Origin: a virus
Reading direction: 5' to 3' (one strand)
UHGV virus genome: UHGV-1962423
Length of the DNA stretch: 64,000 nucleotides
Of this stretch, positions 31,460 through 64,000 are shown in pieces. Every line of letters starts with the position of its first letter. Positions within the stretch are counted from its first letter, which is position 1. The translations under genes were made by a program, and so were the position numbers. The notes beneath the pieces were generated by a model that saw nothing but the letters and a program-made list of their open reading frames with translations, was not told where the DNA came from and did not search any database.

Positions 31460-31460
31460 A

Positions 31461-39164: not shown

Positions 39165-39205
39165 GCCCCTCTCTCCTAGCGGAGAGAGGGTACTTTTATT
39201 TTTCT
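39165..39205 (+). terminator. rho-independent terminator
   Basis: cccctctctcc-tagc-ggagagaggg followed by tacttttatttttc; stem sequence almost identical to the terminator at 38378. Confidence 0.8.
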
Positions 39206-39217
39206 TCGAGGTGTGTG

Positions 39218-40224: not shown

Positions 40225-40268
40225 CTTTTTACGAATGTAGCTATTTTAATGATTAGGAGAATATAGAG

Positions 40269-42296: not shown

Positions 42297-42298
42297 AC

Positions 42299-44030: not shown

Positions 44031-44060
44031 CCGTCCTTGATTTTCAGCTACAGATTAGTT

Positions 44061-44108
44061 TCCTACCGCCCGATTCTATGGGCGGTAGGTGTTTTATTTT
44101 TTTTTTTG
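44061..44108 (+). terminator. rho-independent terminator
   Basis: cctaccgccc-gattctat-gggcggtagg followed by tgttttatttttttttttt. Confidence 0.8.
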
Positions 44109-44123
44109 ATCTTGGAGGGTTAA

Positions 44124-44687
44124 GTGGCCACATCTTACGTACCTGATTTGAGTCTGACCTCAGCAGAGCTAGTGGTCGCTTTAATCAATCATGATAACGG
44201 GTTACAGCTTACGCTAAACGAAATCCGTATTAGCGGAACCGTAACAAACCCATCACCAACAACTTCGCGTCGTAACACCATCACCGAAATCAGTAAAATC
44301 AGAAAACCGGATGGTGCGTCTGTTGTGGTCTACTACGACAGACTTGACGCCGATGAGGTATTAACGTCTGAACCTATTTTGATTTCGTTAGACGGTACCG
44401 AAGCGAATATCCGTGACGTTCTGAGTGTTGTAAATGAACACTGCGGTACGAACTTACAGCCTGAAGACTTACGCGTTTCTGATATTACTTCAGGTAACGA
44501 TCCTATTGCCGTTAACGTTGCCGACGATTCACCTGCGTGGATGAATGCGTTTATGGTGACGTTATTTGATAAAACTGAGCGTGCGTTAGCGAACGAAGAA
44601 GATGAAATCTTCTGCATCGGTGACGATAGCGTTCTTACCTTTGAGGTTCCAGATGACGACTCAGCTGAAGAAAACCCGACTACATGA
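44124..44687 (+). CDS. small protein paired with downstream tail fibre, module A (187 aa)
   Basis: GTG start with GGAGGG RBS; clear paralog of 50418..50930 (PDLSLTS...V.L.NHD..LQL...NE, shared C-terminal CGIGDDSV.LTF); both sit directly upstream of a receptor-binding gene. Confidence 0.7.
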   Translation: MATSYVPDLSLTSAELVVALINHDNGLQLTLNEIRISGTVTNPSPTTSRRNTITEISKIRKPDGASVVVYYDRLDADEVLTSEPILISLDGTEANIRDVLSVVNEHCGTNLQPEDLRVSDITSGNDPIAVNVADDSPAWMNAFMVTLFDKTERALANEEDEIFCIGDDSVLTFEVPDDDSAEENPTT

Positions 44688-44892
44688 ACTTGATGATTTT
44701 TACCGGTAATGGAGGACAAAGCAAACTTTTATCAAGACTTAGCAAACCAAAATCATGAAAACGCGAAATTGAACATCGCTTTCACGTTAGAAGATGATGT
44801 ATTAAAACCAGGGCAATAGTAACCCGCTTATAAAAAATTGGGGGGTAAACTACTCTCCTGATCTTTTAGCTCCCGATAGAGAATTAAATATC

Positions 44893-49209: not shown

Positions 49210-49212
49210 AGG

Positions 49213-49755
49213 ATGGCAGTTGTTGAAGTTCCAGGTTATATCGGTTCTTCTGCAAAGGAAGTTACTGGCGAAGAGATGATGTCTGAAGCGATGACCGAAC
49301 TCGGCGTTGTCGTACCAGGGATGATGTCTGAAATGGCAGGTCTGTCAATGGGTTGCTATGTAACGTTTGAGGAGTGGACTACCGTTGAAGATGGCCTTGA
49401 TGTTCGATGGATCGGTGCGTCTACTTCCGAGTGGACAGACGGCTACGGCAAACCGGTCGTTAAAGGAAAAATATCCGGGGCGAAGATGTTTGGTTTGAAT
49501 GTCGAAGCGGAGCTGATCGGAATGCACTATAAAAAGCATCCGCGATTCCCTTGGTCAGTCGAACTAAAATGTCGCTGCGAAAAAGGTAGCAATTTCAGTT
49601 ATACGTTAGACGGTGTAAGCGGTTCTGTATCGAGTGATGGTACCGGTACAACCGGAATGCAAATTCGTACATTCAAATTTAACAATTTCAGTGCAGCATT
49701 TAAGGAAAAGATAGAGCAAGTTGGTGTCAAGATGCCAACATCACGTAAATATTAA
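49213..49755 (+). CDS. hypothetical protein downstream of tail fibre, paralog 1 (180 aa)
   Basis: MAVVEVPGYIGSSAKEVTGEEMMSE...MGC; paralogous N-terminus to 49812 gene (MAV....G..GSSAK.ETGE..MS.A...LG...P.MMS.M.G.SMGC). Confidence 0.7.
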   Translation: MAVVEVPGYIGSSAKEVTGEEMMSEAMTELGVVVPGMMSEMAGLSMGCYVTFEEWTTVEDGLDVRWIGASTSEWTDGYGKPVVKGKISGAKMFGLNVEAELIGMHYKKHPRFPWSVELKCRCEKGSNFSYTLDGVSGSVSSDGTGTTGMQIRTFKFNNFSAAFKEKIEQVGVKMPTSRKY

Positions 49756-49799
49756 AAGAGTAGCGTAGGGGTGACCTCCCCCCTACGCGAATCTTAACA

Positions 49800-49809
49800 G
49801 GGGGGGGGG
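49800..49809. repeat. G10 homopolymer tract immediately upstream of start codon 49812
   Basis: Ten consecutive G directly read in sequence, 2 nt before the ATG; preceded by hairpin gcgtagggg...cccctacgc at 49763-49788. Confidence 0.9.
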
Positions 49810-49811
49810 TA

Positions 49812-50315
49812 ATGGCGGTTAACTCGGGTTGGGTCGGTTCTTCGGCTAAGAGCGAAACGGGCGAACAGTGGATGAGCGCTGCGGGTGCCAAATTGGGATT
49901 GGGTAAACCTTTTATGATGAGTCAAATGGTGGGACGATCTATGGGCTGTAAAATTTCAACTGCTGCATATAGTGATTCTTTAGGTAAGAAATGGGGTGCT
50001 GTGGGATCAAGTTGGCCATTAACTCAGAAAAATCAGGGAACCATTCAAAACGCGGGTAACTGCGGGGTGGGAACTTTAGTAGGTATAGAGTTACAATTAA
50101 CGACGGTAGTTGCCAACGCAACGCCTACTCTAGCGGTCTATTTACAAGGCGGCAGGGCCTCTAACATCACTGCAAATCTAGGCGGTAACACTTGTGCGCT
50201 GACCTATCAGCAGGTTATTAATGGCCAACATTATTACTGGACCAATAACATTAGTGCCGCGTTCCAAAACGTGATGAAATCGACCGGTACACTAAGAGAT
50301 TTCAAAATTAGTTAA
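49812..50315 (+). CDS. hypothetical protein downstream of tail fibre, paralog 2 (167 aa)
   Basis: Paralog of 49213 gene; start codon directly after the G10 tract. Confidence 0.65.
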   Translation: MAVNSGWVGSSAKSETGEQWMSAAGAKLGLGKPFMMSQMVGRSMGCKISTAAYSDSLGKKWGAVGSSWPLTQKNQGTIQNAGNCGVGTLVGIELQLTTVVANATPTLAVYLQGGRASNITANLGGNTCALTYQQVINGQHYYWTNNISAAFQNVMKSTGTLRDFKIS

Positions 50316-50352
50316 TTATTTTTCAAACGAATGTGTTTGAAAACGTAATCGA

Positions 50353-50362
50353 GGGGGGGGGG
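50353..50362. repeat. second G10 homopolymer tract in intergenic region
   Basis: Ten consecutive G, 55 nt upstream of GTG 50418. Confidence 0.9.
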
Positions 50363-50417
50363 TGAAGTGTTTTTAGCCAACATTTTATGTCTCCCCAACC
50401 GTAGGAGGTAAATATAC

Positions 50418-50930
50418 GTGGAACAATTCACGCCAGATTTGTCGTTAACTTCACTTAACATGGTTATTTCACTGGTTAACCATGACCTCCAACTTGACTT
50501 GCAAGAGAATGAGGTCGAAGTCAGTGACGTAAAGACCAGTGACGAAATGGAACGTGACACCACTGCTGTTGTAAAGATAAAACGTTCTGGTAACAGAACG
50601 TTACAAATCTACTACAACCGTTTAACTGCAGAGCGGTGGTTAAACCGACAACCTGTACTTGTAAAAGTAACAGGCGAAGGGTTTAATGCGCACGATCTAA
50701 TCGAATCCATCAACACCGTTTGTGGTGCTAACTTACAAACCGACGATTTAACCGACCAGTCGTTCACGGTGGGTAAAGACGCGGTAATATTTAGCATCGC
50801 TCCGAGTTCCCTCGGCTACAAAGGTCAGTTCTCCGTGGTGGTTTTCGGTCCAGATGAAACACCGTGTGGTATCGGTGACGATTCTGTCGTGCTAACGTTT
50901 GACAATAAAATCTTAACCTTTGGAGAGTAA
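50418..50930 (+). CDS. small protein paired with downstream receptor-binding protein, module B (170 aa)
   Basis: GTG start with AGGAGG RBS; paralog of 44124..44687. Confidence 0.7.
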   Translation: MEQFTPDLSLTSLNMVISLVNHDLQLDLQENEVEVSDVKTSDEMERDTTAVVKIKRSGNRTLQIYYNRLTAERWLNRQPVLVKVTGEGFNAHDLIESINTVCGANLQTDDLTDQSFTVGKDAVIFSIAPSSLGYKGQFSVVVFGPDETPCGIGDDSVVLTFDNKILTFGE

Positions 50931-50933
50931 TAG

Positions 50934-53066
50934 ATGAGTCAGCCAATTGGAAAGAAGCGTATTCATGAGCTGGAAACATTTGAAGGTGAATTAGCAGGAG
51001 TCGTTCTGCTGATGTCCAAAGACGACAAAGAATATAAACTTGACGCATCTCGTTTACAAAACGATAAGCTGTATCTAGCTTGCGGTACACCTTTTCCTAA
51101 ACTAGTATTCCAAAACGATAAAACACTTTACAATATTAATCCGTACAGTGACTACGACACTTATGAAGTTTCTGCAAATAAAGGTCGGGTATCTAAAGTT
51201 ACTCGTGCCACATTTAGCGTGATGGCTGGGTCTTTATCGGTTGGCGAGAAAATACAACTTACAGTTACGCGCAATGGCGTACCATTTCAATTTGAAGTTA
51301 CCGTATCGGGACCGCGTATCACTACTCCCACTTGGACACTTCCAGTTAATGGCGGTAAATTGAGCGTAACGCCAACCTTTGAAGTAACTGACTATCAAGC
51401 CTATCCATATACCAACACCGGTAATCAACAGACCGCTGCCAGTTGGGAAATTTCCACTAGTGAAGATTTCTCAACTACAGTTTTCCAATCACTGAACGAC
51501 ACCGTCAACAAAACAACCATCAGTATCCCAGAAGGTAAGTTAGAACCAGGTCAAACTTACTACGCACGTGTTCGCTTCCATAACGCAGTAACCGAAAGTG
51601 ATTGGTCCGTTGTTCAATTCTCAGTCGGCGAAGCATTTATTCAGCGTCCTGCACTGATCGAACCCACCGTAGACATGGTGTTAAGCGCATCGAATATTAC
51701 ACTTAAAACTGATGTTTTTAAATGGGTCGGTGACGAACCTGCGGAGACCCACGTATCGACTGACTGGCAGGTTACTTACGGTAGCAACGATTTTGACGAA
51801 ATGAATAATCTCGTTAACCAATTAGAAGATGCGATTAACCTGACGTCGCTTAAATTACCGTCTGATCGGGTTTACGTTAATAACAGTTATCGTGCACGCG
51901 TGCGTTTTCGTGGTGAGAGAAGCGTCAGTGATTGGTCTGAACCTTTAACGTTCCGTGTAAGTCGCGGGAACGTACCAACAAGTGAATTCCAGTCAATTTC
52001 TGCTTCTGGATTTACAGGTAATTCAATCGGTGCTGAGTTGGCATGTACTGACGACGGTTTGCTGTTTGCTGCTACTGGCGTTGCACAGAAAGCGAAATTC
52101 TTACATATCTTTAAGAAAGACTTCCCGTCTTACAACAAAGTTGCCTCTTTAACAGCTGCTACTGAGGTTGACGCAGACAGAGATGGTCGCTGTCCGGTCA
52201 GTATGTCAGCCGACGGTAAGATTATTGTTGTCGGTGTTAGCGCATCTAAAGCTAACGAAGACCACGGCGAAGTTATCGTTTACCGTAACCCAGATAACGC
52301 TGAGTGGAGTACAATCAACGGAATAACTTTAGCGGGATTACCCACAGAAGGGTTCCATGGCCTTGCAGTAAAACTGTCAAAAGACGGCAATCGTTTGATT
52401 GTGGGTAACGGTACGAAAGTGCTGTCTATGTATTCCAATACCGATCAATTTGCTACACGTACGGCTGTGTCGCCGACACTAAGTGCCGAAGACGCCACTT
52501 GTGGTGGTATTGGTAGCATTGCAATGTCTGAAGACGGTAACGGTTTAGTGCTTGGCGAAACTAACGGAACGAAATTCCACGTACTGGCTTGGGAATCGGA
52601 TAGTTGGGTGACTAAGGCATCTATTACACCAAAAGACTTGACTGAGAAAGCAACGATTAAAGTCGCTGCTTCTTCTGACTTGTCTACGATTCTTGTTTCT
52701 GTAGTTGAGACACACAAATACTACGTTTACAAGAAAACCGGTGATAGTTGGTCTCTGTTCCAAACCTTGGATTATACCGAACTGGATTACTCCATTACTT
52801 CTACCCGTTACCCGACGGGAGACATTAATGTTGCGCCTTCCGGAAGCTGGTTAATTTTCGGTATGGTGGGTTCGTTGGGTTCTATTTTCGAATTTCGTAA
52901 TAGTACCTACCAACGACAAAATAGCATTTACGGCAGTAGTCTTAGCGATCCTGAGAATTACCACTTCTATACGTCACAAGCCATCAGTGCACAAAACGAT
53001 TTGTTCGTCGGTGCTGATGTTAAAGAAAGTGCTTCGTACTTCCCACAAATCAAAGTTTACATGTAA
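50934..53066 (+). CDS. second receptor-binding protein (tail fibre/spike) with shared N-terminal anchor (710 aa)
   Basis: N-terminus KKRIHELETFEGELAGVVLLMSKDDKEYKL parallels KKIRLHDLRPYTGDIGEGVLLFSKDEKDYKL of the 1438-aa fibre; central Ig/FN3-like stretches; C-terminal repeated ..DG..IVVG.. units suggestive of a beta-propeller (inference). Confidence 0.6.
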   Translation: MSQPIGKKRIHELETFEGELAGVVLLMSKDDKEYKLDASRLQNDKLYLACGTPFPKLVFQNDKTLYNINPYSDYDTYEVSANKGRVSKVTRATFSVMAGSLSVGEKIQLTVTRNGVPFQFEVTVSGPRITTPTWTLPVNGGKLSVTPTFEVTDYQAYPYTNTGNQQTAASWEISTSEDFSTTVFQSLNDTVNKTTISIPEGKLEPGQTYYARVRFHNAVTESDWSVVQFSVGEAFIQRPALIEPTVDMVLSASNITLKTDVFKWVGDEPAETHVSTDWQVTYGSNDFDEMNNLVNQLEDAINLTSLKLPSDRVYVNNSYRARVRFRGERSVSDWSEPLTFRVSRGNVPTSEFQSISASGFTGNSIGAELACTDDGLLFAATGVAQKAKFLHIFKKDFPSYNKVASLTAATEVDADRDGRCPVSMSADGKIIVVGVSASKANEDHGEVIVYRNPDNAEWSTINGITLAGLPTEGFHGLAVKLSKDGNRLIVGNGTKVLSMYSNTDQFATRTAVSPTLSAEDATCGGIGSIAMSEDGNGLVLGETNGTKFHVLAWESDSWVTKASITPKDLTEKATIKVAASSDLSTILVSVVETHKYYVYKKTGDSWSLFQTLDYTELDYSITSTRYPTGDINVAPSGSWLIFGMVGSLGSIFEFRNSTYQRQNSIYGSSLSDPENYHFYTSQAISAQNDLFVGADVKESASYFPQIKVYM

Positions 53067-53075
53067 GGAAACGCG

Positions 53076-53636
53076 ATGAAATATGCTTATTTAAAAGACG
53101 GTAATGTGATCGACTGGAATGTTACCGAAGACATGATTGCTTTGCGTGGCCACACTGTAGATATTTATACGCCTGTAGTAGAATCTGCTAAACCGGTTGT
53201 TAACCCTGATTGTTATATCGTGTTCGAAACAACACCAAAACTGGTAAAAGGCAAGCTGGTTCAACAGTGGGTGACTGAAGTGCTGCCTAAAGAAACGGTA
53301 GTACGTAACCAGAAGGCACGTTTAGCGGAAATTCGTTATGCGAAAGAAACTGCCGGGATTACGTTTAAAGACCAAACTATTCCTACGACACGTGATGTAC
53401 GTTATCAGTTAATTCAGTCTAAACACGTTGATTCTACGCAACCTATTAACTGGAAGCTAGGCGATACGTGGCTAAGTCTTACTCAGGAAGACATTGATGC
53501 GCTGCTGGTTGCAATCGCAACTTATGTTGAGAAATGCTACGCGGCAGAACGCACAGTCTCCGAGAAAATCACTAAGGTGAAAGCACCTGAAAAACTGGAT
53601 GTAGAAACCTTATTTAACGACGCTTTCGCAGCGTAA
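53076..53636 (+). CDS. hypothetical protein, possible fibre assembly or accessory factor (186 aa)
   Basis: Immediately downstream of the second receptor-binding gene; role inferred from position only. Confidence 0.6.
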   Translation: MKYAYLKDGNVIDWNVTEDMIALRGHTVDIYTPVVESAKPVVNPDCYIVFETTPKLVKGKLVQQWVTEVLPKETVVRNQKARLAEIRYAKETAGITFKDQTIPTTRDVRYQLIQSKHVDSTQPINWKLGDTWLSLTQEDIDALLVAIATYVEKCYAAERTVSEKITKVKAPEKLDVETLFNDAFAA

Positions 53637-53640
53637 CACG

Positions 53641-53683
53641 GTAGCAGGGGCTAAGCCCCTGCTACCTTTTTCTTTATTTTTTC
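53641..53683 (+). terminator. rho-independent terminator
   Basis: gtagcagggg-ctaa-gcccctgctac followed by ctttttctttatttttt. Confidence 0.8.
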
Positions 53684-53728
53684 TCAGATATATATTACCT
53701 AGAGGAGAGTGAAATTTACATTCACTCC
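53683..53728 (+). promoter_or_regulatory. conserved promoter-like box CTCAGATATATATTACCTAGAGGAGAG plus hairpin
   Basis: Box plus hairpin gagtgaa-atttaca-ttcactc; about 30 nt upstream of ATG 53757. Confidence 0.6.
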
Positions 53729-53756
53729 ATTAGTTATAGCCGAAAAGGAGGATTAG

Positions 53757-54608
53757 ATGTATCACCCGTATTATCTCCCGCACATTCTAGCAAATAGAGA
53801 CCCTGGTTATTACTACGAACAAACAAAAGGATCTTTTAATCGGCTCTACATTCGCGAATTTAATACTGATGAAATGACCGATGACCAGTATCTGGAGTAT
53901 CTAAAAGACCTCTACGGTTTTTCAAAATCGAATAAAGGTGGCTTTGGACGTTCCGCAGTTATTAGAGTTGGTGAATATCGTCATTTGGCTAAGCCCGTTA
54001 CGTATCCTATTGTTACACGCGCTTATACATCGGATAGGCAATATATTGCTGAACTAAAATTTCCTTTACGGATAGACGGGCCACAAATTAGCGCTATAGA
54101 AGTAGAAATTCAACCAATTGCTGAAGACTATATTGAAGTCTACTTCAAGAAAGCTAAAGAGGTACTCGAGGAGGGTTTAAGCTACTATGAAGAAGGAACG
54201 ATTTGTCTTCTTTCGTTACTCACGAAGGCTTATGTCACAGCAAATTTCCGTATCTCCGACTCCAGTGACTATAACACATTTACCCCCTCTAAGGCAAAAC
54301 CTGTTTATTGGGACGATCAGTTAGTCGACAGACAACGCTGGCTTACTATCTTAGATAAAGTAAAATTCGAACCCCCTAAACACACTGAAGACAACTTTAT
54401 TCTATCCCACAACTTCGAACCGATCTATATTCCGACGCATTTTGAGCAAGCCTTACGTCATCGATTGAAGTATGTGTTGGAATTACGGTACGGGAAGATA
54501 AATGGGCTAACTTGTTCTGGTGAATTGAGTGAAGAAGAACGCGAGAAGATAAAAATCGTGTTTGATAAGTTGGTTGAAGATTACATTAAGAAGGAAGGAC
54601 AGTTATGA
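53757..54608 (+). CDS. hypothetical protein (283 aa)
   Basis: AAAGGAGG RBS; first gene after promoter box. Confidence 0.8.
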   Translation: MYHPYYLPHILANRDPGYYYEQTKGSFNRLYIREFNTDEMTDDQYLEYLKDLYGFSKSNKGGFGRSAVIRVGEYRHLAKPVTYPIVTRAYTSDRQYIAELKFPLRIDGPQISAIEVEIQPIAEDYIEVYFKKAKEVLEEGLSYYEEGTICLLSLLTKAYVTANFRISDSSDYNTFTPSKAKPVYWDDQLVDRQRWLTILDKVKFEPPKHTEDNFILSHNFEPIYIPTHFEQALRHRLKYVLELRYGKINGLTCSGELSEEEREKIKIVFDKLVEDYIKKEGQL

Positions 54609-55048
54609 AACCAAATACTACTAACGGCATTATGTTACTTTGTGATTCTGAAACGTTAGCAAACCGTATTCGTGGTTTGATGCAAGTACGTTGGCAGCAA
54701 AAGGTTCGCGTGGATTATGCTGCTCCGTTTGTTCACGTTAGTTGGTTGCCAGAAGCTAACGATTTCAAAGAAAATATCACCACGAAAAGAATTAAAAATT
54801 GGTTAATGGCAATCATTAACAAACAGATTACCGTTATCAATTTCCAGTTGTTCGGTAGTAAAGAGGAACATGATACCTTAAAACGCTGTTTAAGGGGATT
54901 GGATCTTGCCTTTTCTGTTCGTGGAAATTGTTACACAGCGTTCTTCATCGGTTCTCTCGAGTTATTTCAGGGAACATTAAACATTCAACTAAAAGAAGAT
55001 TACGGGATTGTAAATAAGATTGATTTCGAATTCCCAGCAATGATTTAA
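54605..55048 (+). CDS. hypothetical protein (147 aa)
   Basis: ATGA coupling. Confidence 0.7.
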   Translation: MKPNTTNGIMLLCDSETLANRIRGLMQVRWQQKVRVDYAAPFVHVSWLPEANDFKENITTKRIKNWLMAIINKQITVINFQLFGSKEEHDTLKRCLRGLDLAFSVRGNCYTAFFIGSLELFQGTLNIQLKEDYGIVNKIDFEFPAMI

Positions 55049-55059
55049 GGAGTAGTAGC

Positions 55060-55887
55060 ATGTTACAGTTCGAACTCACCGAAGAAAGAAAAGTCGTTAA
55101 CGAGTTTAAAATTTCCCCTATCCCTACCGAAAAACAAATTAAAGAAATCGCTGAGTTACAAAATAAGTACAGCTTTTACTATAAAGTTAAATCGGAAACA
55201 TTTAATATTTTCTGGACCGAAGACGAGGTCAATTTCCCTAACAAACTCATTAATGCGGCTCTAGATATTTTAGTACGGCCTGTTGAGACGTCTAAAGATC
55301 CAGAACAAACCACTTGTAGGTTGAAAGTCGAGCGCCCAGCGAAGGATGTTGCTTACTTCACAGACGAGATTCTACTTACCTCCAAACAGGCAGGTAAAAT
55401 TGGATCAATATTATACCTTTTTTACAGCGACAAATTCACTTATCTGGTTGAAAACAACGTACTTAAAGTGAACTATGAATATGCTAGTTATCGTGTTCTT
55501 TTAAATCAACTATTGGAAGACATAGAGGGAGAAAATGTTCTGGTATTTACAGTTGAATATATTAGCAAAGCCGATGCTGGCGAGTTTATCCGCCGCGTGA
55601 AAGATGAACTCGAAGACCGTGAATTTATGATTTATCAAAGCAAATATCTTGAAGGTAACTTGAATCTCTTGATCAGAAACGAATCATGGATTCTTAAAGT
55701 TTTGGAATCCCATGCGCAGAAAATTAAGAGAGGCAGTGATTGTTTTAAACAAATTTTCGAGAAATACGAAACGGAAATTAGACAACGGCTTGCATCCCAC
55801 TGGGCCGTAGATCAGGATGTGGAATACGCCCAGCTATTTGATAAGTTTTATAACGAGATGAGGAGGGTTTGGGATCTTAAACAATAG
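55060..55887 (+). CDS. hypothetical protein (275 aa)
   Basis: AGGAG RBS. Confidence 0.75.
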   Translation: MLQFELTEERKVVNEFKISPIPTEKQIKEIAELQNKYSFYYKVKSETFNIFWTEDEVNFPNKLINAALDILVRPVETSKDPEQTTCRLKVERPAKDVAYFTDEILLTSKQAGKIGSILYLFYSDKFTYLVENNVLKVNYEYASYRVLLNQLLEDIEGENVLVFTVEYISKADAGEFIRRVKDELEDREFMIYQSKYLEGNLNLLIRNESWILKVLESHAQKIKRGSDCFKQIFEKYETEIRQRLASHWAVDQDVEYAQLFDKFYNEMRRVWDLKQ

Positions 55888-55967
55888 GCCGAAGATCATT
55901 TCCGTAAGTATTAAACAGGGGGATTTACGTCCCCTCAACACAGAGCAAACCCCTAAAGGAGCATTAA

Positions 55968-56483
55968 ATGTCAGTAAATATTAACATGAATCTTTATACT
56001 AAACGTGAACGTCAGATTCTGGCGAATCAACCCGGTGTTACGACTATTGACGGTAAACCCATTGACCGTTTAAAAGTTATCGTTGCGCGAAATTGCCATG
56101 AACGCGATTGGGACATTACCTACTTCCGTTGTTGTTCGGTCGCAAACGCGCTTACCCAACTCTCCAACTACCACCCAGGGCCGTTATTAAAAGACTGGGT
56201 TTGGTTAGTACCCAAAACACCTTCGGCGATTGAATACCCCTCAGGGTTGGTTTATATCCGTCCTGTTGCTTATCCAGAACGTCTGAAAGAGTATCTTGAA
56301 GTTATCTGGAACCGTCCTCGTAAAGAGCTGGTGACGATCATTAATTTACTGCAACAGATCGATATCCCCGGAGTTTTGAATTTGAAACTCACGTCTCGCG
56401 ATATTAACCAGGCTTACTGGGAACTAGAGTGGACAGAACCGAAATTCGAAAACACTAACCGTATTTTCTTGCACCGGGGGTAA
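55968..56483 (+). CDS. hypothetical protein (171 aa)
   Basis: AAAGGAG RBS. Confidence 0.75.
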   Translation: MSVNINMNLYTKRERQILANQPGVTTIDGKPIDRLKVIVARNCHERDWDITYFRCCSVANALTQLSNYHPGPLLKDWVWLVPKTPSAIEYPSGLVYIRPVAYPERLKEYLEVIWNRPRKELVTIINLLQQIDIPGVLNLKLTSRDINQAYWELEWTEPKFENTNRIFLHRG

Positions 56484-56485
56484 AA

Positions 56486-56767
56486 ATGTTAAATTGGTTG
56501 TTGGGTTTAATTAACTCACGTCAACAGGAGCTTTATAAAGAAAACACACGATTACGGCAGGAACTTAATAACAATCGTCAGACCAAACGACAATTAATTC
56601 GGATGGTAAAACAACAGGCGCGTTGTATACGGGATATCGATTATCAGTATCACCGTCTGAATACCTTAGACCCAACAACAAAAGCTTTAGGTAGTACGAT
56701 TGGACACGCACGTAAAGTCAGTCACGATGCGTTAGTTCGAATCGATACAATAGAAGAGAAACTGTGA
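56486..56767 (+). CDS. hypothetical basic coiled-coil protein (93 aa)
   Basis: Followed by hairpin ctccctcgg-tttt-ccgagggag. Confidence 0.65.
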   Translation: MLNWLLGLINSRQQELYKENTRLRQELNNNRQTKRQLIRMVKQQARCIRDIDYQYHRLNTLDPTTKALGSTIGHARKVSHDALVRIDTIEEKL

Positions 56768-56810
56768 TTAGCACTCCCTCGGTTTTCCCGAGGGAGATAA
56801 GGTGTTTTGC

Positions 56811-57200
56811 ATGAAGCGTTTATCTTACTTAAAAAGACGTTTGTTACTAAAGGTCCAATTATTCATCAATGGGAAAGTTAAAAACTGGCTATGTGGTGAA
56901 AGGGTACAACGTATCGTCAGTGAGGGCGACTGGTATACGGAAATCGTGGTTTCCCCAAATGGCGAGCTTATAAACGTTACCATTCGTGACGTTTTGGTTA
57001 AGATTGGCAGGGAAGGTGGTTTGCTGTTTGAATCGGAAACTACAAAAGTCGTTGCTAAACAATTGAAAGAAGGTCGGATTATATTCAACGTTGCTGCCCA
57101 AAAATACTACGACAATTTATTCGAATGTCAACGAGCAATAGGCAGAATGACTCGTGAGATGCGAAGAATGCACATCACGGAGATCACTATAGGAGTTTAA
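56811..57200 (+). CDS. hypothetical protein (129 aa)
   Basis: Track start GTG 56802; ATG 56811 with AAGGTG 6 nt upstream. Confidence 0.65.
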   Translation: MKRLSYLKRRLLLKVQLFINGKVKNWLCGERVQRIVSEGDWYTEIVVSPNGELINVTIRDVLVKIGREGGLLFESETTKVVAKQLKEGRIIFNVAAQKYYDNLFECQRAIGRMTREMRRMHITEITIGV

Positions 57201-57202
57201 CG

Positions 57203-57511
57203 ATGGAAAATAAAATCGCAAACACAACGGCACCTGAGAACATCGTCAACTATATTCTCAGTGGCGGGTTATTAGAAGACAACAAAGAAACGTGCGATAA
57301 ACTCGTTTCACAACTACTGCCTATTCGTTCAGAATACTGCGAAATCGTTATCTTAGGTTCTGAGTATTGCGTACGTTCTTACTGTCGTCGTTTCGAAGCC
57401 TTACGCGTTCCACGTACGTTAGGTGGCGTGATACTCTTAGTCTCTAACTTTCACAGTGCACACGTTCGTGTTGCAACCTGGATTGCAAACGGTGGCGATA
57501 ATGGTTTTTAA
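57203..57511 (+). CDS. hypothetical protein (102 aa)
   Basis: GGAG RBS; ORF starts 2 nt after upstream stop. Confidence 0.7.
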   Translation: MENKIANTTAPENIVNYILSGGLLEDNKETCDKLVSQLLPIRSEYCEIVILGSEYCVRSYCRRFEALRVPRTLGGVILLVSNFHSAHVRVATWIANGGDNGF

Positions 57512-57612
57512 TTTATTTAAACGTAAGGAATGTCCTGTCTGCGAAACCTGCGAAAAAAATTATCTCTACGCAAGATGAGCTAATCAAACAGCAAGATAAG
57601 TTGCTCACTGAA

Positions 57613-57789
57613 ATGGGCGAACTCTATTTTAAACTTTGTGCTATTACCGAACTGGTTAGTGAAGGTGTGTTAACGAAAGACGGTGGATTAGAGTTGGTCA
57701 AGAAGGCAACGATTCACTGTCGTCCTGAAGTAGAAAAATATAAACTTGAAGTGAAACGTGAAATGTGGGAGATTATTAATGAAGCGTGA
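57613..57789 (+). CDS. hypothetical small protein (58 aa)
   Basis: Frame open from 57502; first ATG at 57613, weak RBS; start uncertain (TTG 57601 in track). Confidence 0.4.
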   Translation: MGELYFKLCAITELVSEGVLTKDGGLELVKKATIHCRPEVEKYKLEVKREMWEIINEA

Positions 57790-58060
57790 AACAGTTGTAT
57801 TTCGTAGTAATGGTGATGTGGTTTTGTATCGTGGTAAGAAACGTATTCGTACGTTAGAATACCGTGAAGCAAAACGTTTTGTTGAAGAGTGTGCATGGTT
57901 AATGCATTACGAAGGGAACTATCGTGCTATCTTAGAAGCTCCGCGTTTAGAACGTGCGGTTGCACAGATGGCAATAGGTAATCCTAAGAACTGTTACCTG
58001 GCCCGTAAGCCAAAATACTTACAGCGTCTTTCGTTAGGCAGCTTTATTGCTGGATTTTAA
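57779..58060 (+). CDS. hypothetical protein (93 aa)
   Basis: ATG 57779 with GGGAG 8 nt upstream; track start GTG 57758. Confidence 0.6.
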   Translation: MKRETVVFRSNGDVVLYRGKKRIRTLEYREAKRFVEECAWLMHYEGNYRAILEAPRLERAVAQMAIGNPKNCYLARKPKYLQRLSLGSFIAGF

Positions 58061-58070
58061 TAAAAATAAT

Positions 58071-58112
58071 TTCAGATATATATTACCTAGGTGAGAGTTC
58101 AGTTACTCTCAC
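58071..58112 (+). promoter_or_regulatory. conserved promoter-like box TTCAGATATATATTACCTAGGTGAGAG plus hairpin
   Basis: Hairpin gtgagagt-tcagtt-actctcac; about 30 nt upstream of ATG 58143. Confidence 0.6.
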
Positions 58113-58142
58113 TTAACCAAAACCATTTTAGGAGCATATACC

Positions 58143-58637
58143 ATGAACTTCACTAGACTTGACTACACTAACGAATTAGTCGACAAAGAAAAATACAAAT
58201 TCACCGTTGGCTTGGGTTACGGATTACTGGACGTAGAAAAAGACGTCCTGCACAAAGAATTCCGTGAACAGTTCGGTGCTCTGTTCTGCGCAGGTTTCCG
58301 CAGAAACACTATCGATATCGGTTATAGCGCAACAGCGTATACCGACGAAGAAATGTTTAAGCTGGTAACACAGATTATCGGTACGCGTGGAGCCAAACGA
58401 CTCAACTATTCCAACGAACTTGTTTCGAAAGAACATTACAAGTTCACCGTTAGACTACCTGTTCCCCTCACAGAAGAGGATAAGAACATCCTCTATAAAG
58501 CCCTTCAAACCGAATTCGGTAAAACGCTCAAAGTAGGGTTCCGTAATCGTAGTATCGATATCGGAATTAGTGTAGACGTATGCAGTGACGATGACCTTTA
58601 CGAACTAGTTTCGGAAGTTATCGGAAAACATCTTTAA
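58143..58637 (+). CDS. hypothetical protein made of two tandem ~80-aa homologous domains (164 aa)
   Basis: TAGGAG RBS; halves align (LDYTNELVDKEKYKFTVGL...GFRRNTIDIGYS vs LNYSNELVSKEHYKFTVRL...GFRNRSIDIGIS). Confidence 0.8.
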   Translation: MNFTRLDYTNELVDKEKYKFTVGLGYGLLDVEKDVLHKEFREQFGALFCAGFRRNTIDIGYSATAYTDEEMFKLVTQIIGTRGAKRLNYSNELVSKEHYKFTVRLPVPLTEEDKNILYKALQTEFGKTLKVGFRNRSIDIGISVDVCSDDDLYELVSEVIGKHL

Positions 58638-58680
58638 CGTAAATTAACACTTCGACTTGTAAATCTAAAAGGAAAATAAA

Positions 58681-59472
58681 ATGGCTACTTTAACTATTGC
58701 TAATACTCTTACTCCTCGTAAAATGAAACGTCTTACGACTTTTATCTCTCGCTGCACACCTAGCGTCAAATTGGAAACGACCTCTGACAAAATCACGTTT
58801 TGGACTTATAGTGACGTAGAACTTGAAACTGTGAAAGGGTTTGTTAATGGGCTAGTTGAAAATACCGCATCATCACTCGTTATTAGCTTCACTAGCGAAA
58901 ATAGCGAGATGAACGAAGCAACAATTTCGGATGCAATCTATTACGCGACTGGCAATAATTTTGATACCGCCGACAGACTTAATCTTTCTAATAACCTTTG
59001 TAAAATCGACGACAAGACTTACATCCTGTATTTTAATAGTCCGTTCCCACAAATCGGAGGTTTTAAACATTATCTTTCAATGAAACCTATCTTGGGTATA
59101 GAAGTTTTCTCTACGGATCTTGAAGACAATGTACAGCTAAACCGTATTCGTTATCGTGGTAAACGTCCAACCGAAACAGATTCTGAATACGGTGCTTGTG
59201 CTGAATGTATTCTGGTTCATAAAGATCGCTTCGCTTACTACAACCAAGACGATATTGAACGTCTTGTAGAAGCCGTCAATTTATACACTCGCGATTTTGC
59301 ATTCCGATTGGTTTATAACACTTATCCGAATGGTGTAACGGCTTTCTATATCCCTCCCTACCTTTTCGACAAGGTTTATTGTATTCTGTCTAAAGAACTG
59401 GAAAAAATTAAACCGGTTTTCGTGGGCGAAGACGCTATGGCTTATATCAGGAGTGGTGCTAATGTCCTCTAA
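58681..59472 (+). CDS. hypothetical protein (263 aa)
   Basis: AAAGGAAAA RBS. Confidence 0.75.
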   Translation: MATLTIANTLTPRKMKRLTTFISRCTPSVKLETTSDKITFWTYSDVELETVKGFVNGLVENTASSLVISFTSENSEMNEATISDAIYYATGNNFDTADRLNLSNNLCKIDDKTYILYFNSPFPQIGGFKHYLSMKPILGIEVFSTDLEDNVQLNRIRYRGKRPTETDSEYGACAECILVHKDRFAYYNQDDIERLVEAVNLYTRDFAFRLVYNTYPNGVTAFYIPPYLFDKVYCILSKELEKIKPVFVGEDAMAYIRSGANVL

Positions 59473-59893
59473 ACTTAAAGATGAATTGCGTGATTACATT
59501 CGTAAATACCCAGCCAGTATTCCGGTACTGGCTTCACTCTCTCTGTCGGGTATGGACCTTAATACCTTAACGGTAGAAAAATTCCACGAAGTGGTAAAAT
59601 CATCGTACCAAATTGTTACCGATATGTCAGTGCGGAAACGTGCTGACTACCCAGACGGTGATTTCGGTACGGAGATGTTCACAGACTACGCAGTTGCGTA
59701 TCTGATGGGACGTCACTTTATCGATAAACTCAATACGGCTGTAGAAGGAGAAACAGTTTCGGAAATTGTCAATGCTTGGCAACAACGTACTGTGAGTGAT
59801 GCTTACTGTCGTCAAGCCTTAAAGAAAATGTCGGCAGTAGCGCTAACCAATGACCAACGTGCTTTAGAGTTCCTTAAGCACAATTACGAATAA
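59462..59893 (+). CDS. hypothetical protein, paralog of 61177..61608 (143 aa)
   Basis: ATG 59462 with AGGAG 9 nt upstream (track start GTG 59453); LKDELRDYIRKYP vs LKDDIRNYIRNNP in the paralog. Confidence 0.7.
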   Translation: MSSKLKDELRDYIRKYPASIPVLASLSLSGMDLNTLTVEKFHEVVKSSYQIVTDMSVRKRADYPDGDFGTEMFTDYAVAYLMGRHFIDKLNTAVEGETVSEIVNAWQQRTVSDAYCRQALKKMSAVALTNDQRALEFLKHNYE

Positions 59894-59914
59894 TTTACCA
59901 AAAGGAAAAGTACC

Positions 59915-61099
59915 ATGTTTAATATTGAAATTACCCCGCTCGTTAAAACTAAAATCCGTCCGGTTCCCGAAGCACAATTACTCGTACAGCTTTATCATGT
60001 ATTCCTAGATAAAGGTGTGGATTTCCGTGTAGAACAGGTCAACGATGAAAGCATCGTATTCTACTGGACTCACAGCAATGATTACCTTTACACTATCGTG
60101 AAAGAAATCGGTGAGTTACTCAACCCAGTAGCCACGAACGCCTGGGTAGAATCGACCGAGACTGAACAACCGAAAGTCGAAGAACAGCAACAGTCTATAA
60201 ACAAGAGTCACGACCCGTACGTTTGCCGATATGATGTCGAAACGATCGAGAAAATTAAAGAAGTGTTAGAGATCTTCTATCCTGATGACTTATACATCAG
60301 TCGGCAATACGACATGTTAGCTGTCAGTATGAAGGAATTCGATCCTAAGATCATGAAAGATATTCGTAGCATCATTGCTTCGATTGTTTACGACACCGTT
60401 CGACTTATTTCGTTTCAAGGTATCGGAAAAGGTGAAGCGGACGAATTCATGCGTATGGCTGTTCACGAACACAAGGAGAAAATTCGCCAGTCTAATTACG
60501 CTAACGATACTTTAACTGTGCTTGTTGATAATGACCCTGTTGTTATTAACCAGCTGAACATCCGTATGCGTCAGTTAACAAAGAAAATTTTTCTTAAAGA
60601 GGAGCAATCGCTTGAAGAGTCCAAAGTGTCGAAAGTCTTTACTTACACTGGCCCAGATGCCAAAGCGATTGACGATACTTTGACAGCTTTCTATTCTAGC
60701 AAAGTGGAGACTAAACTCGAGGGCGAAGAACTCACTATTAAATGGAAATGGTGGGACATTGCTCTTGAAGAAGAAATTCATAGTCTCATTAAAGAGATTG
60801 TTGACGACCGTCTACGTCTTCTAACAATCACTACTATTGGGAAAGAAGATGCCGATACGTTTATGCGTGGTATCACTCGTTGGTTCCCTGAGAAAGTCCG
60901 TCAGTGGACTTACACAAACGATACACTTACCATTCTGCTCAATTATGAACCCGGTATTATTGGAAAGTTAAAAACTCATCTGCGTGACTTGTGGTCAGTT
61001 CGTTTTCTTAATAATAACGAGCACTTACTCGACGCGTACTTTAGAGAAATATCTTCTGGCGTAGGTTGCAACTGCCCTAACTGTCAAAAACGTCGTTAA
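59915..61099 (+). CDS. hypothetical protein with internal duplication and C-terminal Cys cluster (394 aa)
   Basis: Repeated ADEFMRMAVHEHKEKIRQSNYANDTLTVLV / ADTFMRGITRWFPEKVRQWTYTNDTLTILL units; C-terminal GVGCNCPNCQKRR. Confidence 0.8.
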   Translation: MFNIEITPLVKTKIRPVPEAQLLVQLYHVFLDKGVDFRVEQVNDESIVFYWTHSNDYLYTIVKEIGELLNPVATNAWVESTETEQPKVEEQQQSINKSHDPYVCRYDVETIEKIKEVLEIFYPDDLYISRQYDMLAVSMKEFDPKIMKDIRSIIASIVYDTVRLISFQGIGKGEADEFMRMAVHEHKEKIRQSNYANDTLTVLVDNDPVVINQLNIRMRQLTKKIFLKEEQSLEESKVSKVFTYTGPDAKAIDDTLTAFYSSKVETKLEGEELTIKWKWWDIALEEEIHSLIKEIVDDRLRLLTITTIGKEDADTFMRGITRWFPEKVRQWTYTNDTLTILLNYEPGIIGKLKTHLRDLWSVRFLNNNEHLLDAYFREISSGVGCNCPNCQKRR

Positions 61100-61176
61100 T
61101 TAACGACTTTCTAAATTCATCTAGAGGGGTGGTTTACCACCCCTCTATTATTGTATTTACCTAAAGGAGTATTAAA

Positions 61177-61608
61177 ATGTTTTTCGTATTAAAAGATGAT
61201 ATCCGTAACTACATTCGTAACAACCCTATTGCTCTGGGCGTTTTAGCAGGTTTCTGTCGTCCAAATACTGATTTCGATTTAGTTAAGTTAGAAGAATATC
61301 AGGAAATTGTGAATACTAACTACATGCACATCTGTAGCTGGGGTAAACGTCCTCGCGAAGAGTACCCTGTAGGTGAGTTAGGTGACACTATGCATCGTGA
61401 CCAGAATCTGATGCACGAATTCGTTGAATACACACTGGAAAATCTTAACTATCCGCTTCTGGTCGACACTGTACCAGAAATGGTTGACGAATGGTTAAGT
61501 CGTGTTTACAATGACCCTACTGCCAGCACTCTACTGAGTCAGATGTCGCAAACTTCTCGTGATATCGACACCCGGACCCTGATGTACCTAGCACACAACG
61601 TTCGCTAA
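61177..61608 (+). CDS. hypothetical protein, paralog of 59462..59893 (143 aa)
   Basis: AAAGGAG RBS; same length and N-terminal motif as the paralog. Confidence 0.75.
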   Translation: MFFVLKDDIRNYIRNNPIALGVLAGFCRPNTDFDLVKLEEYQEIVNTNYMHICSWGKRPREEYPVGELGDTMHRDQNLMHEFVEYTLENLNYPLLVDTVPEMVDEWLSRVYNDPTASTLLSQMSQTSRDIDTRTLMYLAHNVR

Positions 61609-61614
61609 CCTTAC

Positions 61615-61680
61615 TCCGCTATAGGCTTCGGTCTATAGCGGAATTAATTTTCTTTCCCTTTTCTTTTTTGTTATTTTGAC
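61615..61680 (+). terminator. rho-independent terminator
   Basis: ccgctatag-gcttcggt-ctatagcgg followed by T-rich tract. Confidence 0.7.
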
Positions 61681-61774
61681 ACCACTTTACTTACACCCTA
61701 CCCGACTATTCCTATGCTGGCTGAGGGATGTAAAACGACCTCTTAAACCTTTTTACTTACTGTGAGTTAACGCG

Positions 61775-62623
61775 ATGTCTCTTACGTCAAAACAGAAACT
61801 GCTAAAACTCATCAACACTGAAAACAATATTAGTCCACCGTTGACTTTCAGTGATGTTGATATCGGAGAACCTACTGGTACTGGGGTTGATACCCAGGTG
61901 GTTCTGACCTCTAAACTCAAAGGCGATGAGTCTACTACTTTAACAGTGACTTACCACCGTCGTAATTTACCTGACTACTTAACCGGTGAGTTGGTTTTCG
62001 GTAACGACAGTGTGGTAACCGCATCAGATTTGCTTAATGCGATCAACGCAAAATACAACCTAAATATTTTACCCTCGGATATCGTTGACGCAAAAGTTGA
62101 AGGTGAAACCCATCAGCTTACCGCTAACGAGAAATCTTACGAGTGGTGCGGTGTAGTAACACTTACGCTGCGTGATCCTATTGACCTGACTGAACTGTTA
62201 CCAGTTACTCAATTAGAGAATCTGGTAGAGTATCCGTCCACTAAGAAAGGTAACGCTGCGGTTTATTCTCACCCGATCGATTTCACCGCAGAAAAAGATT
62301 ACCTTGACCCGATTACTATCAACGACACCGTAGACTTGGTCGAGTTAGCCGCTAAACTGGATGGCGTCGTTGACGAGAAATGGGTAAGTGTGCCTAAGAA
62401 CGCGACTAACAACCTGTACGGTGCGAAGGTTATTTACGATGGCCCAACCGCAGGTTACGAAGGCGCAAATACGAAGTTCACTCGTGTGTTGGTGCTGACG
62501 CTCAGCCCGCTGTGTTCTAACCTGACAGGTAATCTGTTAATCCACTTTAACGGTACCGATCGTCCGAAGTCGAAGATTGAATTAGCACAGACTAATCCGG
62601 TCTTACCGGGATTCTTAGATTAA
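61775..62623 (+). CDS. hypothetical protein (282 aa)
   Basis: Long ORF; paralogous to the following truncated gene. Confidence 0.75.
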   Translation: MSLTSKQKLLKLINTENNISPPLTFSDVDIGEPTGTGVDTQVVLTSKLKGDESTTLTVTYHRRNLPDYLTGELVFGNDSVVTASDLLNAINAKYNLNILPSDIVDAKVEGETHQLTANEKSYEWCGVVTLTLRDPIDLTELLPVTQLENLVEYPSTKKGNAAVYSHPIDFTAEKDYLDPITINDTVDLVELAAKLDGVVDEKWVSVPKNATNNLYGAKVIYDGPTAGYEGANTKFTRVLVLTLSPLCSNLTGNLLIHFNGTDRPKSKIELAQTNPVLPGFLD

Positions 62624-62636
62624 GAGGATTACAGTA

Positions 62637-63161
62637 ATGACCAATCAAGAAACTATCTTCGACCTTATTAAAAAGGCTAACCCAGACGCTGAGTTCGACA
62701 CCACCAAAGTCACACTGGGTGACCCGGTCGTAACCACCGGTACGTACAATACCGAAATCACAGTTGCGTCAATTAAGAATCTCGGTTATACTAACGAACA
62801 AACGTTCCAGTATAACCGGATCGACGCAGGTTTGTATTTCCTGAACGTATTACCGAAACTGTTGGTGGAATCGGCAACAACGACCGCTGACTTACTGCCT
62901 GTCATTAACGAGCAGTACAGCCTAACCCTTACAGAAGACGATGTATGGGTAGAGCAGGTTGGTGAGTTACCGTTAGACGGAAGCGCAATCGAACACGGTA
63001 TTTTCTTCCGTCCTGAGTGTCTGACCTGGGTTGGCGGTTTTACAGTGCGAGTTGCGCGTAAACCGGCTGGCGCTACGCCACCCGAGACATGGAGGAGCCC
63101 CAGACCGCCGAATCCTGGCGCACCATGCCCCAGAAGGCGGCCGAGTGGTGGAAAAAGGTAA
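62637..63161 (+). CDS. paralog of 61775 gene, disrupted at the composition junction near 63070
   Basis: First ~145 codons are phage-like and align to the upstream paralog; the remaining frame runs into high-GC DNA with implausible Pro/Arg-rich translation. Confidence 0.5.
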   Translation: MTNQETIFDLIKKANPDAEFDTTKVTLGDPVVTTGTYNTEITVASIKNLGYTNEQTFQYNRIDAGLYFLNVLPKLLVESATTTADLLPVINEQYSLTLTEDDVWVEQVGELPLDGSAIEHGIFFRPECLTWVGGFTVRVARKPAGATPPETWRSPRPPNPGAPCPRRRPSGGKR

Positions 63162-63229
63162 ACGCAGGTGAAATTGAGAACCCGTTTATTTTCGAGCACA
63201 GCAACGAGCCGGAGGACTACGAGTTTTAA
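63089..63229 (+). CDS. small hypothetical ORF in high-GC segment (46 aa)
   Basis: Not in track. ATG 63089 to TAA 63227-63229; followed by a 10-bp-stem hairpin (63241-63273). Weak evidence. Confidence 0.25.
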   Translation: MEEPQTAESWRTMPQKAAEWWKKVNAGEIENPFIFEHSNEPEDYEF

Positions 63230-63304
63230 TTCCAAAGCGCGGAAGAAGGGGCGGCCGGTACGTCCCTTCTTCCTGTGCATTGCTTATAAAGGAGTGTCAC
63301 AGCT

Positions 63305-64000
63305 ATGGCAAAGACCATCATCACCGCCGCGCTGACCGGCGCGGTCACCCCCGCGGGCTACAAGATCCCCGAGACGCCCCAGCAGATCGCCAACGAGGCT
63401 TACGACGCCTGGAAGCTGGGCGCCGCCGTGGTACACCTGCACATGCGGGCCGACGACGGCCTGGGTGCCATGGACAAGGAGAAATTCCGGGAGACCATCC
63501 GGCTTATCCGCAGCCACCAGGACTGTGATGTCATTATCAACTGCACCTCCTCCGGCGCTTCTGCCGAGCATCCCGCCACGGATGAGGAGCGGATGGCCCA
63601 TCACCGGGAGCTGGAGGGCATCGAGATGGGTTCCTATGATGCCGGTACCTTCAACTGGATGCCCGGCGGCGTGTTCGTCAACTCCCCCCAGTTCCTCGAG
63701 AAGCTGGGCGATCTTTACATGGAGAAGGGCATCAAGCCGGAGCTGGAGATCTTTGACGCTGGCATGCTGGGCGTGGCCAGCTACTTCGTGAAGAAGGGCC
63801 ACCTGTCCACCCCCTGCCACTACCAGTTCTGCCTGGGCGTGCTGGGCGGCATGCCCGCCACGGTGGAGAACCTGCTCTACCTGGTGCAGCACATCCCCGC
63901 CGGTTCCACCTGGTCGGCCTTCGGCGTGGGCAAGGGCCCCCTGCCCATCCTGTTCGCCTCCCTGGCCCTGGGCGGCCACATCCGCGTGGGCATGGAGGAC
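63305..64000 (+). CDS. kce: 3-keto-5-aminohexanoate cleavage enzyme-like protein (BKACE/DUF849), 3'-truncated at window edge
   Basis: Not in track because no stop in window. AAAGGAG RBS then MAKTIITAALTGAVTP..., HLHMRADDG, GGHIRVGMED; GC-rich third codon positions; frame open to the end of the window. Confidence 0.7.
   Translation, partial: MAKTIITAALTGAVTPAGYKIPETPQQIANEAYDAWKLGAAVVHLHMRADDGLGAMDKEKFRETIRLIRSHQDCDVIINCTSSGASAEHPATDEERMAHHRELEGIEMGSYDAGTFNWMPGGVFVNSPQFLEKLGDLYMEKGIKPELEIFDAGMLGVASYFVKKGHLSTPCHYQFCLGVLGGMPATVENLLYLVQHIPAGSTWSAFGVGKGPLPILFASLALGGHIRVGMED

Follow-up and report, generated by a model that had tools for sequence, protein, structure and literature searches.

Flavonifractor plautii DNA at the end of a jumbo-phage contig is very probably an assembly misjoin at a shared 22-nucleotide sequence

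The window, the whole 64,000-nucleotide stretch of the virus genome UHGV-1962423 that was analysed here, carries DNA of an Enterobacterales jumbo phage up to a point shortly before its end, where a gene for a short virion protein gives way to DNA of the type found in Flavonifractor plautii. The window stops 912 nt past this junction. The bacterial part holds the end of one gene and the beginning of another, with a short intergenic spacer between them. The features that bear on the interpretation are the following.

1..63066, + strand: segment of an SPN3US/phiEaH2-like Enterobacterales jumbo phage, the left parent of the probable chimera (from PHROG matches, capsid identity and collinearity).
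62637..63088, + strand: short paralog of the DUF7941 virion protein, codons 1-150 plus 2 nt (Pfam PF25613, E 7e-28; phrog_1037/2935).
62637..63161, + strand: fusion ORF of 174 aa, probably artefactual, running from the phage gene into bacterial DNA in the wrong frame, with the tail WRSPRPPNPGAPCPRRRPSGGKR (from the translation).
63067..63088, no strand assigned: crossover zone, the 22-nt sequence CTGGCGCTACGCCACCCGAGAC, exact in both phage and F. plautii (from native contigs of both).
63089..63229, + strand: last 46 codons of an enoyl-CoA hydratase/crotonase-family gene of F. plautii (frame open far upstream in F. plautii ATCC 29863 and in the scaffold L012).
63241..63273, + strand: hairpin GGAAGAAGGG-(13 nt)-CCCTTCTTCC with a 10-bp stem in the bacterial intergenic spacer (read from the sequence).
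63289..63294, + strand: AAGGAG ribosome-binding site, 10 nt upstream of the BKACE ATG (read from the sequence).
63305..64000, + strand: F. plautii-type BKACE (DUF849) gene, first 232 codons, running off the window end (Pfam PF05853).

Among the products of the phage part are a major head protein of 761 aa, large virion proteins, a tail fibre of 1,438 aa and DUF7941 virion paralogs encoded in tandem. PHROG matches in the window include a jumbo-phage major head protein, virion proteins and a phiKZ-type 'polymerase'. The capsid is ~80% identical at the amino acid level to those of the Erwinia phages phiEaH2, Stratton and Asesino, and 78% identical to those of the E. coli phage EC001 and of Salmonella phages of the SPN3US type. 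The window is collinear, at 84-97% identity, with NZ_CP173450.1, a circular molecule of 221,873 bp which the complete genome record of E. coli 98232 labels as a plasmid. The 282-aa protein encoded at 61775-62623 recurs in identical form on 19 contigs, two of them in NCBI isolate assemblies. The phage clade is present in E. coli replicons and isolate assemblies, and it has relatives that infect Enterobacterales. Megablast of the phage side against 50,697 deposited phages returned no close nucleotide match, and blastn of the high-GC side against deposited phages returned no match. As the phage is without a close cultured relative, the parent sequences were taken from metagenome look-ups. Two long, independent contigs represent the phage parent up to the very edge of the junction. 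L002 (JGI sample 3300045988, 200,862 bp) shows 0 mismatches over 11,089 nt to window positions 52000-63088, and L048 (OBXH01000029.1, 200,848 bp) is 100% identical to positions 60148-63088, again with 0 mismatches.

Base composition changes abruptly near the window end, with a GC content of 0.442 for 1-63088 versus 0.628 for 63089-64000. Every 2-kb bin up to 62000 has a GC content of 0.38-0.48, and 200-nt windows past ~63000 have 0.58-0.70. Against 1,244 sliding 912-nt phage windows, the maximum of which is 0.529, the terminal segment (63089-64000) exceeds the mean by 6.0 SD. A change-point likelihood test over 60000-64000 yielded an LLR of 59.9 versus a maximum of 6.8 in 200 shuffles. The shift in GC is thus genuine and well outside the range that chance would give. 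The initial annotation, which described a sharp rise in GC near the window end and a terminal gene with the codon style of a high-GC bacterium, is borne out on both counts by the GC windows, the change-point test and the third codon positions. GC3 is 0.90 in the terminal + strand gene (63305-64000) versus 0.42-0.54 in the phage genes, hence the codon usage of the bacterial piece is unameliorated. The same annotation located the switch at ~63070-63080, and here the switch itself stands and its exact place does not. Composition alone puts the change point at ~63008 (support 62947-63064). It falls on the upstream side of the breakpoint given by homology since the phage gene is GC-rich over its last ~80 nt. 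The exact breakpoint by homology is 63088|63089.

The junction disrupts the second of two neighboring DUF7941 genes. Pfam PF25613 scores 176 bits for the gene at 61775..62623 and 98.2 bits for the shorter gene starting at 62637 (cutoff 27), and the DUF7941 genes match phrog_1037/2935, 'virion structural protein'. The native gene at 62637 has 159 codons and ends in the C-terminus ...ETVSRAKKKK*. This 159-aa form is found in each of the 11 related phage sequences in which the gene is covered in full (L001-L008, L010, the E. coli replicon L023, and L048). The E. coli replicon is circular, and two of the sequences stem from NCBI isolate assemblies. The gene order is the same in all 11, with the 282-aa DUF7941 protein followed by the 159-aa DUF7941 protein, a GH108 endolysin and a DUF1353 protein, and the BKACE gene is found in none of the 11. 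Past ...CCACCCGAGAC, both L002 and L048 continue to the native gene end through nine further codons (GGTGTCTCGCGCTAAGAAGAAAAAATAA in L002), and farther downstream they carry a terminator, the GH108 endolysin, DUF1353, more DUF7941 paralogs and radical-SAM genes. In the window, ...CCACCCGAGAC is followed by ATGGAGGAGCCCC... instead of native phage sequence, and the phage gene is left without its last nine codons and stop. The 174-aa ORF at 62637..63161 is, from its translation, most readily understood as an artefactual read-through into bacterial DNA. The switch had earlier been placed inside this ORF, which is correct, yet the supposed loss of coding character ~145 codons in does not amount to a mid-gene loss as codons 1-150 of 159 are kept. 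Two further readings of the break were considered and rejected. The Pfam match covers half of the DUF7941 profile and suggested a gene cut mid-domain, but the native paralog is naturally 159 aa long. The 91.5% identical relative L001 suggested a breakpoint at 63069, which reflects haplotype divergence within the phage, whereas the 100%-identical contigs give 63088.

On the bacterial side, F. plautii ATCC 29863, the 21-kb scaffold L012 and 28 human-gut contigs all carry the sequence from 63067 onwards in its native form and without interruption. Nucleotide identity between F. plautii ATCC 29863 (L022, NZ_JH417827.1) and window positions 63064-64000 is 94.9%. No 100%-identical bacterial parent was found in the sequences compared, the closest having 96.8% identity along the full length and 99.5% along a stretch of 371 nt. 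The BKACE gene had been described as the sole coherent frame past the switch, a claim that does not survive given the 46-codon crotonase tail at 63089-63229. This crotonase-family gene is cut on its 5' side by the junction with the loss of all but 46 codons, and the protein reconstructed from L012 matches Pfam ECH_1 (E 1e-14). Fourteen contigs encode the exact 46-aa product of 63089-63229 with BKACE coming next. The gene order in L012 is MFS, DUF362, 3-hydroxyacyl-CoA dehydrogenase, MFS, CoA-transferase A/B, thiolase, crotonase, the 46-aa ORF and BKACE. The native BKACE neighborhood includes two crotonases, and no lysine-fermentation genes were detected among the annotated neighbors of the native locus. 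The hairpin at 63241-63273 is possibly the terminator of the crotonase gene, and it went unflagged in a scan for consensus terminators because it is without a T-run.

The partial product of the terminal gene matches PF05853 with an E-value of 2.5e-72 and 244 bits (cutoff 24.8) over profile positions 1-231 of 274. The native BKACE protein is 294 aa long. The fragment is 91-97% identical at the amino acid level to Flavonifractor and gut proteins, with Flavonifractor and Oscillospiraceae as the best named relatives. Alignment to Kce (PDB 2Y7D) gives an E-value of 2e-38 and brings the conserved metal-binding motifs, HxH (HLH) and the terminal E-D (MED), into register. In the column of Kce Glu14, however, this protein has Val (TGAVT versus TGAET in the alignment to 2Y7D). 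Glu14 of Kce binds the 5-amino group of the substrate, and a related enzyme annotated as Kce proved to be a triacetate acetoacetate-lyase (TAL), which has Trp at the Glu14 position (PMC10470551). The protein thus resembles the BKACE family members Kce and TAL over the N-terminal 231 of 274 profile positions, and departs from Kce by its Val and from TAL, which has Trp there. Based on the profile match and the alignment, the BKACE family assignment is sound, whereas the narrower Kce label fails at the Glu14-equivalent position. [quoted passage not shown] A cluster of many contigs ending at 64000, suggested by the likewise 232-aa protein P0004, was rejected because P0004 ends at a stop codon of its own and represents a different variant.

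The two parents overlap at the junction by the exact 22-mer CTGGCGCTACGCCACCCGAGAC. Its native bacterial context is ...AACGA-CTGGCGCTACGCCACCCGAGAC-ATGGAGG... (L012 and L022), and its native phage context is ...AACCGG-CTGGCGCTACGCCACCCGAGAC-GGTGTC... (L002). The next bases in the phage contigs L002 and L048 are GGTGTC or GGGGGC, so in the phage the immediate flanks are G/G, as against A/A in the bacterium. The 22-mer is read as GCT GGC GCT ACG CCA CCC GAG AC in the phage and as TGG CGC TAC GCC ACC CGA GAC in the bacterium. Because the reading frames differ, neither protein homology nor common coding ancestry accounts for the shared sequence. Among 185,579 species-representative genomes, the 22-mer is found only in F. 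plautii ATCC 29863. It is carried by 29 metagenome contigs, none of them chimeric: both flanks are bacterial in 28 and phage in the remaining one, L048. There is no match to the 22-mer in IMG/VR, hence the phage haplotype with the 22-mer is known only from L002, L048 and, with one SNP, L003. For a 225-kb phage, chance alone is expected to produce ~26 shared 22-mers with 1 Gb of gut metagenome and ~0.1 with a single 3.8-Mb genome. We infer that the two parents have the 22-mer in common by chance.

The junction itself was searched for in several collections. No sequence in IMG/VR or among metagenome contigs matches the 39- and 42-mers across the junction, and a look-up in 153 billion gene positions finds no record of either the 174-aa fusion product or the 232-aa partial BKACE product. 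The initial annotation had named the same junction in related phage genomes as one of the findings that would show it to be real. This was looked for, and the junction is present in 0 of the 11 related phage sequences spanning the whole gene and in 0 of the 29 contigs with the 22-mer.

We suggest that the window very likely comes from a contig made chimeric in silico, in which the phage path was left for the F. plautii path at the 22-mer. Each side is contiguous with other flanks in independent assemblies of its own genome, an exact shared sequence long enough for a graph or overlap join lies at the crossover, and the junction was not reproduced in independent data. A misjoin in a graph or by overlap is indicated because the crossover falls within the exact 22-mer common to both parents. 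The initial annotation had already considered a non-biological chimera the simplest explanation, and this view gains from the native state of both parents in many assemblies, the absence of the junction elsewhere and the shared 22-mer. Common short-read metagenome assemblers start at k=20-21 by default. The assembler would have tracked the genome of an E. coli jumbo phage to 63067-63088 and then exited along the F. plautii chromosome of the same gut sample. The 22-mer comprises two consecutive 21-mers, which would be enough to link the genomes in a k=21 (or k=20) graph. Alternatively, the 22-mer might have satisfied a short terminal-overlap merge. Links made at k=21 are ordinarily dissolved by multi-k assemblers once k increases, and the route therefore presupposes low coverage at the site or merging at a later stage. 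We infer such a route, in which the correct phage continuation past 63088 would have been poorly supported in the graph.

The phage sequence immediately beyond the 22-mer is variable and tends to break assemblies. L002 and L048 are 99.974% identical over 7,689 nt and differ at just two positions, +3 and +5 past the 22-mer, both within the small inverted repeat CGAGAC-GGT-GTCTCG. In Illumina data, inverted repeats that contain GG motifs give rise to sequence-specific errors. The C-terminal tail of the 159-aa gene occurs in at least five variants. Other assemblies of the phage haplotype break within 40 nt of the 22-mer, with L009 stopping at 63071 with ten unrelated bases and L011 stopping at 63051 (both of the same haplotype). 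Shared k-mers that link the graphs of different genomes are a recognised cause of chimeric contigs (PMC7299287). The window resembles the inter-genomic chimeras described for short-read de Bruijn-graph assemblies in that two unrelated genomes of a community, each contiguous elsewhere, are joined seamlessly at an exact shared k-mer beside a strain-variable and weakly supported stretch (PMC7299287). It differs from the usual inter-genomic chimeras in that the shared part is likely a chance 22-mer rather than a conserved gene or mobile element.

The same 22-nt identity could have acted on molecules rather than on a graph. A chimera might form in vitro during library PCR or whole-genome amplification, if an incompletely extended phage strand ending in the 22-mer primed on F. 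plautii DNA, in which case the junction would be present in some reads and never in a cell or virion. The identity is of primer length and sits exactly at the crossover, and the public contig L013, which fuses an Illumina adapter-containing sequence to the same F. plautii block, demonstrates that artefactual molecules do enter assemblies. They are scarce next to native reads, though, so a weak native path would still be needed for the assembler to prefer them, and the sequence itself gives nothing to tell such a molecule from an in-silico join. We regard this origin as unlikely. Real capture of F. plautii DNA in vivo by an E. coli jumbo phage, through short-homology recombination at the 22-nt identity, is very unlikely, and this grade applies jointly to a dead-end recombinant and to a true insertion with a second junction beyond the window. 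The seamless junction lies within an identity near the minimal length for homologous pairing, and the window stops before a second junction could show, which would allow for a return to phage DNA. Yet the relatives of the phage are found in E. coli and in isolate assemblies, and F. plautii, the donor, is a Firmicute that lives as a strict anaerobe, so the two DNAs have no obvious cytoplasm in common. The junction is absent from the 11 relatives, the 29 contigs with the 22-mer and all collections searched, and two 100%-identical phage assemblies carry the native sequence. Such an event would also have destroyed the 3' end of a virion gene to import a gene fragment, and the bacterial piece shows no amelioration. 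A join of finished records, with a ~912-nt bacterial record appended end to end to a phage record during binning or data preparation, has only the slimmest chance of being correct. Stand-alone public contigs of 909-929 nt start 0-2 nt from 63089 and end at ~63997-64003, as such a record would. These recurrent starts are, however, largely a selection effect of the look-up by the exact 46-aa product, and 28 contigs run through the site. The idea of a discrete fragment, which arose from ~910-nt contigs starting at 63087-63089, was rejected on the same grounds, and no SNP 30 nt downstream explains the starts. Moreover, any cut within 63067-63088 leaves 22 nt matching both parents, an outcome of probability ~4^-22 for unrelated ends. 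The artificial concatenation proposed in the initial annotation founders on this seamless overlap; it would work only with graph-adjacent unitigs from which the overlap had been removed, which is the assembly-graph explanation again.

Two further readings would make the junction part of the biology of the phage. The abrupt transition from phage to bacterium, with terminal bacterial DNA and a sharp change in composition and gene content, is what a prophage-host boundary on a viral contig looks like, of the sort that quality tools for viral contigs cut away as host region, and the junction could mark an att site of a phage integrated in the F. plautii chromosome. At the boundary itself, in contrast to such cases, no att site, integrase or tRNA is evident, and no tRNA was found in the entire 64-kb window. 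The break lies inside a DUF7941 virion gene on one side and inside a crotonase gene on the other. The native phage runs through uninterrupted in 11 sequences including a circular replicon, and the bacterial locus is uninterrupted in 28 contigs and an isolate genome. The relatives are Enterobacterales phages and the flanking F. plautii, of another phylum, is not in this host group; the GC content of the phage is 44% versus ~63% in the bacterium. Integration at this site has a negligible probability. Similarly, a BKACE gene with its own ribosome-binding site adjoining phage genes may be mistaken for a moron or auxiliary metabolic gene acquired by the phage. This reading is contradicted by the absence of BKACE from every relative and by its unconserved position, where 11 of 11 relatives have the 159-aa gene and then the GH108 endolysin. 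The gene also arrives with a cut fragment of the neighboring bacterial gene, is 94-97% identical at the nucleotide level to a bacterium that is not the host, and has kept unameliorated codon usage. The misjoin at the 22-mer accordingly remains the preferred explanation, and the last 912 bases are in all likelihood not a biological phage-host junction.

If the junction were true, it would mean that a virulent jumbo phage captured bacterial DNA across phyla and possibly packaged it in virions. Nothing in the evidence found supports a real cross-phylum capture of this kind. The main relevance of the finding lies in data hygiene. Left uncorrected, the contig would falsely suggest that a jumbo phage carries BKACE as an 'auxiliary metabolic gene', that the phage has Flavonifractor as a host or integration target, and that it codes for a new virion protein of 174 aa. 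We recommend trimming the contig at 63088, or at 63066 to be on the safe side, and leaving the BKACE gene, the fusion ORF and any Flavonifractor host link out of the description of this phage. The case may also serve as a worked example of how one chance 22-mer beside a locally variable site could link unrelated genomes in a gut metagenome assembly.

Although the Flavonifractor plautii gene that runs off the end of the window (63305-64000) encodes a BKACE of the same DUF849 type as the characterised enzyme Kce, it has no equivalent of Glu14, the Kce residue that binds the substrate 5-amino group, and carries Val instead. The gene cluster, as seen in a 21-kb F. plautii-type scaffold (L012 1-12634), comprises two crotonases, a thiolase, CoA-transferase A/B, a 3-hydroxyacyl-CoA dehydrogenase, a DUF362 protein and two MFS transporters. 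No lysine-fermentation genes were detected among the annotated neighbours of the BKACE gene on this stretch. The F. plautii protein is likely a beta-keto-acid cleavage enzyme acting on a substrate other than that of Kce.

The F. plautii block recurs in public data, where several independent assemblies (L014-L021, Logan/JGI, 909-1121 nt) yielded a near-identical contig of ~910 nt matching window 63087-64003. Their first base lies 0-2 nt ahead of 63089, and 63997 is the end point of five. The common start is partly a selection effect of the look-up. Past about 64013, the 3' parts of the BKACE gene differ from one contig to another. N gaps occur in both F. plautii-type scaffolds, at a distance of 100-165 nt upstream. 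In its behaviour, the block resembles a repeat or a recombined unitig. The first bases of a further contig (L013 1-146; ENA ERZ27266213 k141_108147) are those of an Illumina TruSeq adapter, GTGACTGGAGTTCAGACGTGTGCTCTTCCGATCT. Next come an AT-rich stretch of ~109 nt and then the F. plautii block, with the join exactly at ...AGAC|ATGGAGG. This join is an independent artefact at the same base as the window junction.

On the phage side, the 159-aa DUF7941 paralog varies in its C-terminal tail (window 63067-63100; L002 11293-11330; also L048), for which five variants were found: AGATPPETVSRA, AGATPPETGARA, ADATPPETVSRA, AVETPPAKPSRA and AEATPPKAASRA. The two otherwise identical 200-kb phage assemblies L002 and L048 differ at 2 positions in 7.7 kb, both in this variable patch and both inside the inverted repeat CGAGAC-GGT-GTCTCG. 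The two differences may be genuine microheterogeneity or the product of sequence-specific error.

In all relatives (L002 16942-20849; also L003, L004, L005 and L023), two to three radical-SAM genes (PF04055/PF13353) lie in a run on the opposite strand, downstream of the native phage region; such a set is unusual among jumbo phages. A 685-aa ORF at window 11237-13294 (- strand) runs antisense to the gene for the 761-aa major head protein and is probably a shadow ORF that arose by chance.

Window 1-63088 belongs to a clade of SPN3US/phiEaH2-like jumbo phages of ~200-226 kb, for which INPHARED contains no close match at the nucleotide level. Strain E. coli 98232 (urine, Egypt) has a phage of this clade in its complete genome, as a circular 'plasmid' of 221,873 bp (L023/L024, NZ_CP173450.1), and contigs of 111-145 kb are present in two NCBI isolate assemblies (L005, GCA_003875135.1; L007, GCA_009055325.1). 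Together, the circular 'plasmid' and these contigs suggest that cultured isolates carry a jumbo phage, wrongly annotated as a plasmid.
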